A DNA stretch of 64,000 nucleotides from positions 5,340,928 through 5,404,927 of the forward strand of contig OY969474.1 in NCBI GenBank assembly GCA_963700145.1, written 5' to 3'. Source of the stretch: an uncultured Acidobacteriota bacterium (GTDB lineage: Bacteria > Acidobacteriota > Thermoanaerobaculia > Multivoradales > UBA5704). Made by a program: the position numbers and the translations under genes. The notes beneath the pieces are model-generated. The model was not told the DNA's origin, searched no databases, and saw only the letters and a program-made list of their open reading frames with translations. Shown here in pieces: positions 57,701 to 63,060 of this stretch. Position 1 is the first letter of the stretch. Every line of letters begins with the position of its first letter.

Positions 57701-58414
57701 AACTTCGGACCGGGGAACGCTCCCCGGGGCGCCGGGAGGATTGTTTTCGGACCAGTTCGTACTACTTTCGGACAGAGAAGCACCAAGATCGGACCAAAAC
57801 AGCCGGTGCGTTGGGAGGGAAGCCGAGTTTACGGGGTCCGAAACTCGCCGGCGCCCGGCGGCAGAGCTATTTTCGGACCGAAAAGTACGATTTCAGGACC
57901 ACAGGGACGCCTGACACGGGTCAGAAGCCCCAAAATCGGACCGGCGACACGTCCCCAGCGCTCGGTACGAACGGTTCAGAGACCGAAGTGGAACAGAATC
58001 GGACCAAAGAGTTAGATTTCAGGACCGAGGAACGTTCCCGAAGGGCCGCTGACACCTCCGCACCAGCAGACGACAGCTCCTCAGGGTGCCAGATGGAAGA
58101 AAATCGGACCAAACCGTAAGATTTCAGGACCAAAACAGCCGCCCAAGGCCGCCGAGCGGTCCGATTTCGGACCAAACCACTAGGGGAGGCCCGCGGGGAG
58201 TGTTCCTTTCGGACCGGGGAAGAATATTTTCGGACCGCGGAGGCATCTTTTCGGACCGCGCAGCCTTCCCGAGGCCGCGGGGAGACATCCCGACGGGTGG
58301 GGGAGCGTAGCCTTCGGACAGCGGAAGGATCTTTTCGGACCGCGGAGCGTTCCCTTCGGACCGCGGAACCTTTCCGAGGCTGCAGGGAGGCTTCCTGACG
58401 GGTGGGGGAGCGGC
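57701..58414 (+). repeat. about 34-unit tandem array of diverged 21-bp repeats with conserved core TTTCGGACC (variants ATCGGACC, TTCAGGACC)
   Basis: GGAC cores start at 57707, 57749, 57770, 57791, 57875, 57896, 57938, 58001, 58022, 58106, 58127, 58169, 58211, 58232, 58253, 58316, 58337 and 58358. Every spacing is 21, 42, 63 or 84 bp. A 105-bp (5-unit) higher-order duplication links 58205-58309 to 58310-58414. Two inverted cores lie at 57835-57843 and 58158-58164. Confidence 0.85.
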
Positions 58415-58516
58415 CACTGCTAGCCCCGACGAGAGCCGCGAGCTGGCGCTCCTGGTCTCCGCGTCTGACACCTTCGCGCCAAGCGCTTGGCTGCCACGGC
58501 GGCGATCCGCAGCTCA
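58400..58516 (-). pseudogene. eroded RelE/ParE-type toxin N-terminus
   Basis: Directly after the antitoxin stop (ATATGA). One frame gives YELRIAAVAAKRLAR and another gives ...QERQLAALVGAS, which together resemble the start of ParE/RelE toxins. The reading is broken by frameshifts and runs into the repeat array. Confidence 0.3.
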
Positions 58517-58744
58517 TATCCGGCCATGACGCCGCAGGTCCTTGACGACCTGGTCGAAGCTCAGCAGCCGCTCTCCACGTCTCTGCTCGAAGGCCTCGAG
58601 ATCTGCCGCGTTTTCCCCAAGGGCCAGCCCAACAGCTTCGTTGACCAGCTCCGAGACGGAACAACCTGTCGTCGCCGCCTTGAGCCGCAGAGCACGATGG
58701 ATCTCGGGATCGAGGTAGACGGTTGCACGCTTCGTGGTTTTCAT
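58514..58744 (-). CDS. ribbon-helix-helix antitoxin (RelB/ParD-like)
   Basis: 76 aa. KRATVYLDPEIHRALRLKAATTGCSVSELVNEAV (RHH) plus a C-terminal toxin-binding-type tail. Confidence 0.7.
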   Translation of the reverse strand: MKTTKRATVYLDPEIHRALRLKAATTGCSVSELVNEAVGLALGENAADLEAFEQRRGERLLSFDQVVKDLRRHGRI

Positions 58745-59259: not shown

Positions 59260-60315
59260 ATGAAGAAGCCTAGGCGACCAGAGTACACCCCGTTGGACTT
59301 CGCTCAATGGAAGGCGGCGAACTCTCTTTCTCTCTCTCCCAAGTTCCAGCGGCGGGGAGTCTGGAAATCGGCGGCCCGCTCCTTTTTTGTGGACAGCTTA
59401 CTGCGAGGTATGCCAGTTCCTCCAATCTACTTGCGCGAGATGCAGTCTCCGCAGCGCGATCGCGTAATTCGCGAAGTGATAGATGGCCAGCAGCGGATCG
59501 CTGCTGTCCTCGACTTTATGGACGGCAAGTACCGCCTCTCTAGGAGTCTCAAGGGGCCGTGGGCTGGCAAAGCCTTTGGCGGATTGACGCCGGAGGAGCA
59601 GGACAACGTGACGAACTACGCCTTCTCTGTCGAGATGTTTCATGGGATCTCTGATCTTGAGGTCCTCGAGATGTTCTCTCGACTGAATACATATAGTGTG
59701 GCGCTAAACAAGCAAGAACTCCGTCACGGGAGGTTTTTTGGTCGATTCAAGCAGTCTGTCTACTCCCTTGCTTACGAGCATTTGGAATTCTGGCGGCGCC
59801 ACCGAATATTCACAGAGCAGAATATCGCGCGCATGCTCGAAGCTGAATTTGTTAGCGAGGTTCTGATTGCTTTTCTCGATGGAATGCAAGACAAGAAGAA
59901 GTCCATTGAGTCGTTCTATGACAAGTTTGACGACGAGTTTGCTGAGCAGTCGCGTCTGGAGAAGCATTTCCGTGAAGCCGTAGACGAAATAACGGAGTCG
60001 CTTGGCGACGCCCTTGTGGATACCATCTTTCGTCGGCCTCCCATCTTGTATTCGCTCGTTTGCGTTCTCCAACACCGCCGACACGGCTTACCGGGCGTGT
60101 CTGTCGCAACCACGAAAAGGCCTCTCTCTCAAGACGAACGCTTGTCCCTACGAGAGGCCGTTGAGTCTCTCTCGGCGAGGGTTGATTCCGCTCGCGCGGG
60201 TGAAGTCGTCCCGAATCAATACGTCGCCTTCGTCAAGGCCTGCCTACAGCAGACAGACAATATTAGGCCGCGCGAGACTAGGTTCAAGGTTCTCTATCGC
60301 ACAGCATTCCGGTAG
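59260..60315 (+). CDS. DUF262 (ParB-like/GmrSD N-terminal) domain protein, no DUF1524/HNH domain
   Basis: 351 aa. FQRRGVWKSAARSFFVDSLLRGMPVPPIYL and VIDGQQRIAAVLDF (DGQQR motif). The C-terminal half is helical with no His-Me/HNH signature visible. Low GC. Confidence 0.85.
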   Translation: MKKPRRPEYTPLDFAQWKAANSLSLSPKFQRRGVWKSAARSFFVDSLLRGMPVPPIYLREMQSPQRDRVIREVIDGQQRIAAVLDFMDGKYRLSRSLKGPWAGKAFGGLTPEEQDNVTNYAFSVEMFHGISDLEVLEMFSRLNTYSVALNKQELRHGRFFGRFKQSVYSLAYEHLEFWRRHRIFTEQNIARMLEAEFVSEVLIAFLDGMQDKKKSIESFYDKFDDEFAEQSRLEKHFREAVDEITESLGDALVDTIFRRPPILYSLVCVLQHRRHGLPGVSVATTKRPLSQDERLSLREAVESLSARVDSARAGEVVPNQYVAFVKACLQQTDNIRPRETRFKVLYRTAFR

Positions 60316-60318
60316 ACC

Positions 60319-60963
60319 ATGCCGAGGCAGATGCCCCGCCTCGAGGCGGAGTTTCATCGCCATGCGGCAGAAGCTATGAAGCTTGCCGAAATTGGTGAGC
60401 TCTCACGAGCTGAGGCAATCGCTGGCTCCCAGACGCGCAAGAATTTCCATCACAGTCGCGTGGAGTTACTGTATGAGCTAGCATTTTTGCGGGTTTTCGT
60501 GGCGTGGGAAGCGTTTCTTGAGCAGACCTTCATCCGATATCTCTGCGGCTATAGATCAAGGAGAGGCGTGGCTGTCCTTTTGGCTGGAGCATCGTTCTCG
60601 CCGACGCTTGCACACGCCACAGCCGTTGTTCTGGCGGGAAGAGACTACGTATTGTGGCATGACCCGTTAAAGGTGATTGGAAGATCGCAGCGGTCGTTCA
60701 CTGCCTGTCCTATCGAAACGGTCCTTCTCTCAAACACTGCCCGTCTTCAGGCATGTGCCGCTGTACGCCACCGCATCGCACACTCACAGAGCGACGCTCG
60801 GCGGAAGTTCGACAACGCGACCATGGCCATAGCAGGGAAGCGCTACAGAGGTGCCCGAGCGGGCGCGTTTCTTCGCGACTGGGACATAGGGGTGACGCCT
60901 CATGCCCGATGGCTTGAGCAATTGGGGCGTGAGTTGCAGAGTCTTGCATCTCAGATAGCATGA
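60319..60963 (+). CDS. HEPN-like protein (Rx4H: RHRIAH), MAE_28990/MAE_18760-like by resemblance
   Basis: 214 aa. The ATG is 3 nt after the DUF262 stop. Helical N-part LLYELAFLRVFVAWEAFLEQTF and C-terminal AAVRHRIAHSQSD (Rx4-6H). The family assignment comes from memory of the motif pattern, not from a search. Confidence 0.5.
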   Translation: MPRQMPRLEAEFHRHAAEAMKLAEIGELSRAEAIAGSQTRKNFHHSRVELLYELAFLRVFVAWEAFLEQTFIRYLCGYRSRRGVAVLLAGASFSPTLAHATAVVLAGRDYVLWHDPLKVIGRSQRSFTACPIETVLLSNTARLQACAAVRHRIAHSQSDARRKFDNATMAIAGKRYRGARAGAFLRDWDIGVTPHARWLEQLGRELQSLASQIA

Positions 60964-60984
60964 ACAAGTTAAGCAAAAAGGCAT

Positions 60985-61016
60985 AACCCGCCCGCCATAG
61001 CGAAGGCGGACGGGTT
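60985..61016 (-). terminator. hairpin terminator downstream of the 61063..61779 gene and at the island edge
   Basis: AACCCGCCCGCC-atagcgaa-GGCGGACGGGTT with one mismatch. On the minus strand it is followed by atgccTTTTTgctt. Confidence 0.45.
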
Positions 61017-61062
61017 AGCCGGTCGGGGTGATGCAGTCGTCAGTCTCTCGTCGTCGTCGGCC

Positions 61063-61779
61063 TTACTGGATGATCAGGGTGTAGTTGACACCCGTCTCCG
61101 ACTGGTCGGGGTTGATCATCCGGAAGCTGAGGGTGTGCTCGCCCTGGCTCAGCGGCTTCAGGAGCAGGAAGTAGCCGTCCGCCACCGCCGGGGAGCGGTC
61201 GCCCGGGTCGAGCCCGAGATCGGTCAGGAAGGACGGATCCGGGACTTCCAGGGTGTAGCCCTCGGGCTGGCTCTGGGCCCGGTAGGCGAGGAGGTCTCCG
61301 ATGGGCTCGCCGTCGAGGGTGGCCTCGAAGGAGACGCCCGGCGCCACGGGCACGTCGTTGTTGACGTCGCAGCGCACCTGCTCCGCGATCGTCGCCATCT
61401 GCGAGCAGGGGTCGCCCGCCGAGGGGAACTCCGGCGCGAAGCTGACGAAGACGCCGCCCAGCGAGAGGAAGATCGCCTTGCCGGCCGGGATCTCGCACGT
61501 CCGGTCGGCGACGCCGCCGAAGGTGCTGGCCAGGAACCACACGCTGCCGTGCTGGTTCAGGTCGCAGAACCTGCCGTCGGGATCGAGCGCCGGGTTGGTC
61601 GCGAACGGCTCGGCGACCAGCCAGTTGGTCCATTCGCTGGCCAGCTCGTTGTACGACTTGCCGGCGAACTTCTGACCCGGCTCGACGACCTTGTTGCTGG
61701 CAGCGGCCGAAGCCGCCGCCGCCACCAGGAGCACCATCACCACCACTGCACTCTGCCGAAGCTTGCTGTTCAGTTTCAT
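61063..61779 (-). CDS. hypothetical secreted protein
   Basis: 238 aa with a signal peptide (VVVMVLLVAAAASAAAS) and backbone GC. No family recognised. Confidence 0.65.
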   Translation of the reverse strand: MKLNSKLRQSAVVVMVLLVAAAASAAASNKVVEPGQKFAGKSYNELASEWTNWLVAEPFATNPALDPDGRFCDLNQHGSVWFLASTFGGVADRTCEIPAGKAIFLSLGGVFVSFAPEFPSAGDPCSQMATIAEQVRCDVNNDVPVAPGVSFEATLDGEPIGDLLAYRAQSQPEGYTLEVPDPSFLTDLGLDPGDRSPAVADGYFLLLKPLSQGEHTLSFRMINPDQSETGVNYTLIIQ

Positions 61780-61836: not shown

Positions 61837-63060
61837 TTACTGCGTGCCGCCGCGCACCGCCCGCACGCGGGAAGTGCCGGACTTGAACGTCGTGGCCACA
61901 CTGCCGTAGTTGTCCACGTACCAGGCCGCGAACGTGGCGCTGGCCCGCGTCGTCGACGTCCAGTAGGTGGACTGGAAGGTGCAGCTGCCGGTCAACACGG
62001 TGGCGCCGGGAACGCAGTTGTTCTGGAACGCCGGCGATACCGCCCACTGGTTCTGGAAGTCCGCGACGCTCAGGAGCTCCCGCGCGTTGGGCACGCGCCA
62101 GTCGCTATAGCCCCCGAAGCCTTCCTGGTTGACGTCCTCCAGCCAGTCCCAAACCGTCTCCTCGTAGCCGTTGCCGGACCACCAGTAGATGTTGTCCTTG
62201 TCGTGCCGGCCGCCGTTGTCGCCCTTCTTCTCCCAGACCAGGCCGGTGTTGTCGTCGGTGATCGTGCCGTTGCCGTTGTCGGTGAAGCTCAGGGGCGCAC
62301 CCGCCCGCAGCGTGCCGTCGTCCGGTACGGCGACCGCGCCGGGGATGCCGTCGTTCTTGTTCGCGGTGTAGGCCGTGAGCTGGCCGGTGGCCGGGAAGCC
62401 CGAATCGCCGCCCCGCACCGCCCGCACGCGCAGGCCGGCGGTCTTGTCGTACGGGTAGAGGACGCCCTCGTAGAAGCTCACGCCCCACGCCATGCCGGTG
62501 CTGCGGGCCCAGGTCGTCGACGACGTGTAGCTGGTCACGGCGGTGCAGCTCCCGGTCAGCACGGTGGCGCCCGCCACGCAGTTGCTGTTGAACGCCGACG
62601 CCGTCATCGGCGCGCCGTTCTGGAAGTTGACGAGGGTCTGGAGCTCCTTGGCGTTCGGCACGCGCCAGTCGTCGTAGCTCGCGAAGCCGGTGCCGCCTTC
62701 CGCGTTGACGTCGTCCAGCCAGTCCCAGATGGTTTCCTGGGTGCCGGTGCCGGACCAGGCGTAGTAGTTGTCCTTGTCGTGCAGCCCGCCGTTGTCGCCC
62801 TTCTTCTCCCACATCAGGCCGGTGGTGTCGTCGGTGATCGTGCCGTCGCCGTTGTCGGTGTAGCTCAGGCTCGCGCCCGCCTGGAGCGTGCCGTCGTCCG
62901 GCACCGCGACCGCGGCCGGGATGTTGTCGTTCTTGTTCGCGGTGTACGCCGTGGTCTGCCCGGTGGCCGGGAGATCCATCGCCCCGGCGGAGGCCGCGCA
63001 GCCCAGGGCCAGGGCCGCCAGGACGAGCAGTGATAGGAACTGATGCCGCCTACGATCCAT
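61837..63060 (-). CDS. secreted protein with two DUF1566 (Lcl C-terminal-like) domains
   Basis: 407 aa. Duplicated TGL(M/V)WEKKGDNGG.HDKDN.Y.WS...W.WL.DVN...G...Y.DWRVPNA.EL modules. Confidence 0.8.
   Translation of the reverse strand: MDRRRHQFLSLLVLAALALGCAASAGAMDLPATGQTTAYTANKNDNIPAAVAVPDDGTLQAGASLSYTDNGDGTITDDTTGLMWEKKGDNGGLHDKDNYYAWSGTGTQETIWDWLDDVNAEGGTGFASYDDWRVPNAKELQTLVNFQNGAPMTASAFNSNCVAGATVLTGSCTAVTSYTSSTTWARSTGMAWGVSFYEGVLYPYDKTAGLRVRAVRGGDSGFPATGQLTAYTANKNDGIPGAVAVPDDGTLRAGAPLSFTDNGNGTITDDNTGLVWEKKGDNGGRHDKDNIYWWSGNGYEETVWDWLEDVNQEGFGGYSDWRVPNARELLSVADFQNQWAVSPAFQNNCVPGATVLTGSCTFQSTYWTSTTRASATFAAWYVDNYGSVATTFKSGTSRVRAVRGGTQ

Follow-up and report, generated by a model that had tools for sequence, protein, structure and literature searches.

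A DUF262 protein and a probable HEPN-type ribonuclease encoded in tandem: a horizontally acquired gene pair of PD-T4-2 architecture in an uncultured Acidobacteriota bacterium

Reviews count PD-T4-2, Menshen, and Dazbog as DUF262 systems devoid of a DUF1524 domain. PD-T4-2, a two-gene anti-T4 system from Escherichia coli ECOR65, is listed as “DUF262, HEPN”; it was validated against T4 in K-12, and its deletion from native ECOR65 restores T4 plaquing (Vassallo et al., 2022). In the HHpred table of the same study, PD-T4-2A is assigned to DUF262 (99.7%) and PD-T4-2B to HEPN_RiboL-PSP (97.8%) and HEPN_MAE_28990 (96.9%); the system is located on QOYX01000002, at 338334-339873 (Vassallo et al., 2022, supplement), where PD-T4-2A corresponds to RCO39066.1 and PD-T4-2B has no annotation. 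Operons with ParB had been tabulated for the RiboL-PSP and MAE_28990 HEPN families in an earlier survey (Anantharaman et al., 2013). A mechanistic study of PD-T4-2 was not found in the literature searched. The present work concerns a pair of adjacent genes, called here gene 1 and gene 2, carried by a 64,000-nucleotide stretch of DNA from an uncultured Acidobacteriota bacterium (assembly GCA_963700145.1, contig OY969474.1, positions 5,340,928 to 5,404,927 of the forward strand). This whole stretch is referred to as the window.

The pair is a horizontally acquired two-gene cassette. It has the architecture of PD-T4-2, its second protein being a possible counterpart of component B of that system, and the family of that second protein is unrecognized by current database models. 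We hold, with moderate confidence, that this transferred and self-contained unit would be a PD-T4-2-type cassette directed against phages or mobile elements, in which the DUF262 protein would act as sensor and a HEPN protein as effector. The defence phenotype is proposed by analogy with PD-T4-2 and with the GmrSD, BrxU, and SspE enzymes. A sequence-only reading of the window had drawn attention to these genes, stating that no experimental characterization of such a pairing was known and that a DUF262 plus HEPN design would be distinct from characterized GmrSD-type enzymes. The pairing is neither uncharacterized nor distinct, in view of the validation of PD-T4-2 as “DUF262, HEPN” and of the ParB-HEPN operons tabulated in 2013.

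Both open reading frames (ORFs) and the 3-nt spacer between them are as that reading described (Table 1), and the peptides that it quoted, FQRRGVW, DGQQR, and RHRIAH, are all found in the translations. The GC content is 0.51-0.57 over the pair (55%) and about 0.71-0.72 in the remaining window, the genome having 71% GC. The short spacer (TAG-acc-ATG) suggests translational coupling of gene 1 and gene 2. An alternative start of gene 2 is M5 (60331), which is preceded by GAGG; M5-P6 is nearly invariant, and many homologues start there.

Gene 1 matches the Pfam family GmrSD_N/DUF262 (PF03235) over residues 25-160, at 70.1 bits (3.7e-19) for a cut-off of 33.2 bits, and the same family is carried by all 120 listed gene-1 homologues. 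As announced, the DUF1524/HNH half is lacking: no such domain, nor any other nuclease-like domain, was found after GmrSD_N with Pfam and PADLOC. In the AlphaFold2 (AF2) model (predicted local distance difference test score, pLDDT, 84.6), the C-terminal half is all-helical. The best PADLOC model is NsnA (1.1e-33, 115 bits, residues 20-250). PD-T4-2_A comes below it (3.8e-22, 76.8 bits), with a match in two partial stretches, and the same partial pattern is given by unrelated DUF262 proteins. Foldseek ranks BrxU first (probability 0.99), followed by the ParB/Noc/KorB CTPases and sulfiredoxin. In the first of its two motifs, no change is seen at F29, Q30, R31, R32, V34, or W35 throughout the deep gene-1 family. 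The second, DGQQR, stands in the context VIDGQQRI (residues 73-80) and does not vary among 36 close homologues and 33 deep ones; FQRR-x-VW and DGQQR are both retained down to 28% identity. Because Pfam, PADLOC, Foldseek, and motif conservation all support it, gene 1 is described as a DUF262 protein with a ParB/Srx fold and NsnA-like architecture but no DUF1524 half. It is a predicted sensor of nucleoside triphosphate (NTP)-hydrolyzing, DNA-recognizing type, with a nucleotide-binding domain and a helical, putatively DNA-binding C-terminal region.

With the single sequence of gene 2, no match was found in Pfam, NCBIfam, PADLOC, or the sequences of the Protein Data Bank (PDB), and PDB sequence searches with family profiles of the window clade (A2) and of a distant clade (A3) gave no match either. 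The protein nevertheless belongs to a large family. A word-indexed search returned 182 homologues, all unnamed, and the family comprises 1,042 representatives at 50% identity (E ≤ 1e-3). Its AF2 model is all-helical, with 11 helices (pLDDT 94.6, predicted template modelling score 0.90). Only W63, W113, R150, H155, and L185 are invariant in 72 diverse representatives. Of the sequence-only reading, the helical character of gene 2 and its R-x4-H motif are supported, the Arg and His being invariant. In the distant clade (40 members, from reference genomes), R-N-x-x-x-H is invariant at the position aligned to R150-H155. This clade is unambiguously homologous to the window clade by profile alignment (hhalign probability 100%, E = 1e-39, R and H aligned). 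A second conserved patch lies in the long second helix: W63 is invariant and E64 and E68 nearly so among the 72 representatives, and W-E-x-F-L-E is invariant in the distant clade.

Is gene 2 a HEPN protein? The motif R-[N/H]-x3-H is the classic HEPN signature, and in gene 2 a polar residue (H151) directly follows R150, this residue being N in the distant clade. The only recurrent Pfam match of the family is HEPN_RiboL-PSP (PF18735), obtained for 21 of the 72 and 19 of the 40 members (40/112 in all), with a best E of about 3e-4. Sporadic matches concern the Swt1, Cthe2314, pEK499_p136, Abi_2, and MAE_28990 HEPN families. The partial HEPN_RiboL-PSP matches lie on the helix that bears the motif (residues ~136-165, aligned to positions 140-170 of a 191-position profile), and in one family member the match extends over residues 61-161, against profile positions 41-165. 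As a reference, an alignment was used of bona fide HEPN proteins with PF18735+PF18737, which occur as partners of DUF262 in plasmids of enterobacteria. When the gene-2 family is compared with it by hhalign, the motifs fall in register and the scores are 21.1 and 23.7, as compared with 12.7 +/- 2.4 for 40 column shuffles (the highest being 21.3) and with 17.7 and 19.3 for an unrelated family. With the A3 profile, the 99th percentile of composition-matched shuffles is exceeded by 81% of the bona fide HEPN sequences, vs. 0% for an unrelated helical control. Scores of hidden Markov models between the gene-2 family and bona fide HEPN proteins are 2-10 bits, yet above those of the shuffled controls.

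Several results weigh against this assignment, and with it against the PD-T4-2-type reading of the pair. All Pfam HEPN matches of the family are below the gathering score (~12-14 bits vs. 28.4). The hhalign comparison with bona fide HEPN proteins has E = 0.01-0.02 and a probability of just 2-4%, and the similarity is mostly confined to one helix. In Foldseek searches of the PDB and BFVD, the gene 2 model has no significant neighbour and retrieves generic helical bundles (E ≥ 0.5). The best HEPN structure is the HepT toxin 7ae9_C, at rank four and not significant (E = 0.87, probability 0.41, template modelling scores 0.31/0.41). This structural negative is a weak one, because the bona fide PF18735/PF18737 family is also without a sequence relative in the PDB. 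Thus, of the earlier proposal that gene 2 is a HEPN protein, the R-x4-H motif and a weak HEPN_RiboL-PSP signal stand, and a significant fold or profile match is missing. Its suggested resemblance to the MAE_28990 and MAE_18760 groups pointed in the right direction for MAE_28990, as indicated by the HEPN_RiboL-PSP signal and by the DUF262 partners carrying PF18735 and PF18737. Taking both sides together, the profile evidence makes gene 2 a likely HEPN-type ribonuclease (RNase), and we regard it as a probable divergent effector of this type.

The statistical weakness of the HEPN assignment leaves room for another division of labour, in which the DUF262 protein would itself be the effector, nicking or cutting DNA in a ParB-like manner or depleting NTP. 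Gene 2 would then be helical but non-catalytic, an adaptor or a specificity or regulatory subunit, and its conserved Arg and His would contact a ligand or nucleic acid without cleaving RNA. The 2013 survey counted ParB-like domains among the DNases (Anantharaman et al., 2013). Moreover, gene 1 has invariant residues outside the NTP pocket (R141, N143, E153, and R191), and such DUF262 proteins also pair with other partners, for example a protein kinase. In characterized DUF262 enzymes, however, the nuclease is DUF1524 and DUF262 is the NTPase or sensor. Furthermore, R-[N/H]-x3-H is invariant in two deeply diverged clades, where it matches the HEPN catalytic signature, and the equivalent partners, where they can be annotated, are HEPN nucleases. 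This arrangement of roles seems to us quite improbable.

The association of the two genes was followed across genomes. A scan of one genome per species gave 75 loci with gene-2 relatives, 74 of which have enough upstream DNA. In 72 of these 74, the gene immediately upstream, in the same orientation, is a gene-1 homologue, so that the synteny on which the sequence-only reading depended is found, and the pairing is far beyond chance. The loci belong to more than 10 phyla, including Gemmatimonadota, Acidobacteriota, Alpha- and Gammaproteobacteria, Planctomycetota, and Actinomycetota; further host groups include Nitrospirota, Verrucomicrobiota, Chloroflexota, Bacteroidota, and Clostridia. Sizes are well kept (about 350 aa for gene 1, 206-220 aa for gene 2), and intergenic gaps are typically of -4 to +17 nt, mostly 0-17 nt. 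The two proteins co-diverge (Spearman 0.84, n = 64). At all of the 48 loci compared, the GC content of the pair falls below that of the distal flanks, with a mean difference of 0.10. Flanking genes vary between loci, and those sampled are mobile or defence-related: a NERD protein at one locus; Tn3, IS1595, resolvases, and PemK at another; elsewhere a complete type I restriction-modification system, an IS200-family transposase, and a serine recombinase. At one locus the pair resides inside an integrative and conjugative element (ICE) with TrwC, TraG, and ParA, and on the conjugative plasmid pRE117-1 of Glutamicibacter arilaitensis it lies beside Fic/VbhA. The 206-aa partner on this plasmid is a member of the gene-2 family by profile search (122.6 bits); it was missed by tblastn, which gave no match for gene 2 against 72,556 plasmids. 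The accessory context attributed to the pair is supported by its low GC and by its neighbours. A role as defence cargo is favoured because the distribution is sporadic, low-GC, and cross-phylum, as is typical of such cargo.

Some copies depart from the common arrangement. Truncated or interrupted pairs were seen at L025, L029, L031, L033, L051, L074, and L076; at L044 the best gene-1 match is 3.4 kb upstream of gene 2, and at L025 no gene-1 homologue occurs within 6 kb. Such decayed copies are consistent with the frequent decay of accessory defence genes. A metagenomic protein of 427 aa (P0134) joins, in one ORF, the C-terminal portion of a gene-1 homologue to an entire gene-2 homologue. It may stem from a natural fusion, from a frameshift, or from an error of assembly; a genuine junction would hint at physical joint action of the two proteins.

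These genomic locations also bear on a toxin-antitoxin (TA)-like interpretation, which casts gene 2 as a constitutively toxic HEPN RNase and the DUF262 protein as the antitoxin that neutralizes it. The two would form an addiction module, analogous to MNT-HEPN or to the proposed ParA/Soj-MAE_18760 dyads, with the stabilization of mobile elements as its main role and not the sensing of phage DNA. Such a function would be compatible with defence. The operon is tight and probably translationally coupled, the pair occurs on plasmids, ICEs, and transposons beside TA genes (PemK, Fic/VbhA), and dyads of an NTPase antitoxin with a HEPN toxin were proposed in the 2013 HEPN survey (Anantharaman et al., 2013). 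On the other hand, the antitoxin would be large (351 aa) and endowed with an invariant, catalytic-type NTP pocket, which fits a regulated switch better than a passive neutralizer. In addition, the closest tested analogue came from a phage-defence selection, and several chromosomal copies have decayed in both genes with no orphan antitoxin left. We consider an addiction module unlikely.

Among described systems, PD-T4-2 resembles the pair most directly in its layout: two genes, a DUF262 protein without DUF1524 and then a small protein with a HEPN-type R-x4-H motif. The order and sizes of the genes and the DUF262 half are in agreement, the second protein of the pair being a probable HEPN protein. 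PD-T4-2B also maps to the Pfam neighbourhood (HEPN_RiboL-PSP/MAE_28990) from which the only recurrent weak signal of gene 2 comes. Gene 2 (214 aa) is longer than PD-T4-2B, whose HHpred matches end at about residue 163, and the hosts differ, with environmental phyla for the pair vs. Enterobacteria for PD-T4-2. It should be noted that PD-T4-2 was compared through PADLOC models and published HHpred descriptions. The PD-T4-2_B model gave no match in the Cronobacter, Enterobacter, and E. coli/Salmonella plasmid loci, nor in three prophage contigs.

The GmrSD/BrxU/SspE type IV enzymes share with gene 1 the ParB/Srx-fold DUF262 domain with DGQQR, and BrxU is the best structural match. An assignment to these enzymes was rejected: gene 1 has no DUF1524 His-Me finger domain and its neighbour is not a DUF1524 protein. 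Unlike their DUF1524 domain, the putative effector of the pair is a separate protein, and probably an RNase. Menshen (NsnABC) is related through the NsnA match of gene 1, which corresponds to a ParB-DUF262 plus DNA-binding architecture and to the proposed Menshen sensor. It was also set aside, as the NsnB ATPase and the NsnC inPIN-nuclease effector are lacking and gene 1 is followed by a single 214-aa protein and then by a convergent gene. Finally, Dazbog was discarded, since neither protein matches the DzbA or DzbB model (PADLOC, E ≤ 1).

NsnA-like DUF262 proteins (~350-430 aa) have differing small downstream partners across loci. The partner is a protein kinase on Asticcacaulis pASTEX02 (L079), a 180-aa protein with SRHAFAH on an E. 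coli IncF plasmid (L098), and an annotated MAE_28990-family HEPN protein on a Salmonella IncF plasmid (L099). In three prophage contigs from IMG/VR (L083-L085), it is a 215-228-aa protein with R-N-x3-H, weakly related to gene 2. The Salmonella locus is laid out much as the window locus: a 353-aa DUF262 protein, 3 nt, and the HEPN protein of 211 aa, whose R-N-x3-H motif lies at ~74% of its length, vs. ~70% for the motif of gene 2. Similarity between HEPN proteins of this IncF type and gene 2 is barely detectable (hhalign, same E values as above), and only the former are named by Pfam and by the annotation pipeline PGAP. Besides L100, where Tn3 follows the gene, about 500 IncF plasmids of Escherichia, Shigella, and Salmonella, many of them conjugative, carry a 374-aa DUF262 gene beside pemIK, apparently without a HEPN partner. 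Taken together, the varied partners suggest that NsnA-like DUF262 proteins are one sensor scaffold with exchangeable effectors.

In the PD-T4-2-type cassette that we favour, gene 1 would bind NTP in the pocket containing FQRR and DGQQR and would serve, by analogy with BrxU and SspE, as a sensor or switch recognizing invading, possibly modified, DNA. Gene 2 would be co-translated with gene 1 and probably held in complex with it. Firing of the sensor would release or activate a gene-2 dimer; R150 and H155, most likely acting in the dimer, would then cleave RNA, either tRNA or mRNA, and the resulting translation arrest would lead to abortive infection. To the points raised above on the HEPN assignment, four others are to be added on the opposing side. 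The PD-T4-2_B model fails to match gene 2 (E ≤ 1) and all 72 scanned members of its family (E ≤ 10). The match of gene 1 to PD-T4-2_A is partial, and that to NsnA is better. No classical defence genes were found among the immediate neighbours of the pair in the window. Lastly, the sensor and effector roles are an analogy, because a mechanism of PD-T4-2 was not found published in the literature searched. A variant of this scheme, which we put forward tentatively, is that the gene-2 family would be more than a diverged PD-T4-2B, namely a distinct effector family, either a deep HEPN branch or a convergent helical fold with R and H, obligately coupled to an NsnA-like switch.

The coordinates of the pair, of its motifs, and of the surrounding features are collected in Table 1.

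Table 1. Features of the gene pair and its surroundings (positions are those of the window).
Feature	Position	Strand	Size	Remark	Basis
TCGGACC repeat array	57705-58362				Sequence scan
Ribbon-helix-helix (RHH) antitoxin-like ORF	58514-58744	-	76 aa	Antitox_RHH, 25.3 bits (cut-off 27.2)	Pfam
Gene 1	59260-60315	+	351 aa		ORF
FQRRGVW (F29-W35)	59344-59364	+		Gene 1; motif of ParB/Srx-type nucleotide-binding domain	Translation
DGQQR (D75-R79)	59482-59496	+		Gene 1; DUF262 NTP-binding/hydrolysis motif	Translation; role per GmrSD/BrxU/SspE literature
Spacer, gene 1 stop to gene 2 start	60316-60318	+	3 nt	TAG-acc-ATG	Sequence
Gene 2	60319-60963	+	214 aa		ORF
WEAFLE (W63-E68)	60505-60522	+		Gene 2; further conserved patch, on the long second helix	Translation
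R150-H-R-I-A-H155	60766-60783	+		Gene 2; candidate HEPN R-x4-H catalytic motif	Translation and alignments
GC-rich hairpin	60984-61017		13-bp stem	Between gene 2 and the convergent downstream gene	Terminator scan and sequence
Convergent gene downstream of gene 2	61063-61779	-

Upstream of gene 1, the search for a sigma-70-like promoter was negative, a result that is uninformative for a high-GC, non-enteric genome. At the other end, the hairpin that follows gene 2 is probably the end of the operon; its T-run is on the - strand side. As for flanking att-like repeats, the only candidate, a weak 16-nt inverted pair (57712-57727 / 61188-61203, 88%), was taken as chance.

Upstream of the pair, the sequence-only reading had seen debris of TA modules and a repeat array. 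The array is real and one ORF does resemble an RHH antitoxin, being also NikA-like, FitA-like, and RHH_3 in Pfam; this ORF is sub-threshold, and no recognizable toxin gene lies beside it, the repeat array being located downstream. Of the 23 TCGGACC sites of the window, 15 fall within the 660 bp of the array. Its 13 + strand copies are spaced by exact multiples of 21 nt, that is, two helical turns, and the copies sit in longer degenerate units of 21/105 nt, in an apparently non-coding, lower-GC stretch. The array has the appearance of a phased site for protein binding, similar to iterons or a centromere.

Such an array, about 900 nt upstream of a protein whose fold is similar to those of ParB, Noc, and KorB, could speak for a pair unrelated to conflict, made of a ParB-like DNA-binding, partition, or regulatory protein and a helper that would maintain an integrated element, perhaps via the repeats. 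This reading is disfavoured because the array does not travel with the pair: none is found beside it in about 80 other loci, and a functional link between the two was rejected on this ground. Furthermore, the window holds no ParA partner, the best matches of gene 1 are the defence proteins BrxU, NsnA, and PD-T4-2_A, and the distribution described above is that of defence cargo. A non-conflict role is, in our opinion, very improbable.

Further downstream, on the - strand, an ORF of 407 aa (61837-63060) consists of two similar halves of ~190 aa, as seen by eye in its translation, with the repeat ...ATGQ[T/L]TAYTANKND...DDGTL[Q/R]AGA...TITD[D]xTGL[M/V]WEKKGDNGG...DWRVPNA[K/R]EL... It represents an internal tandem duplication, and the protein is probably secreted.

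What is new here is a large effector family that current models do not cover, in a system of known design, and no new principle of immunity. Protection of E. coli against T4 by DUF262-plus-HEPN cassettes is already established, and the design is far wider than current models capture. Its second component includes a family of about 1,000 clusters that is invisible to Pfam, NCBIfam, and PADLOC; a model of this family would improve the annotation of defence genes in environmental genomes. Should the gene-2 family prove to be a distinct effector, a widespread defence system of soils and sediments, with a trigger or target unlike that of PD-T4-2, would have been missed by current finders. The deep alignments designate targets for mutation, FQRR and DGQQR for gene 1, W63/E64 and R150/H155 for gene 2, with which the control of a separate RNase by a ParB-type NTPase switch could be dissected.

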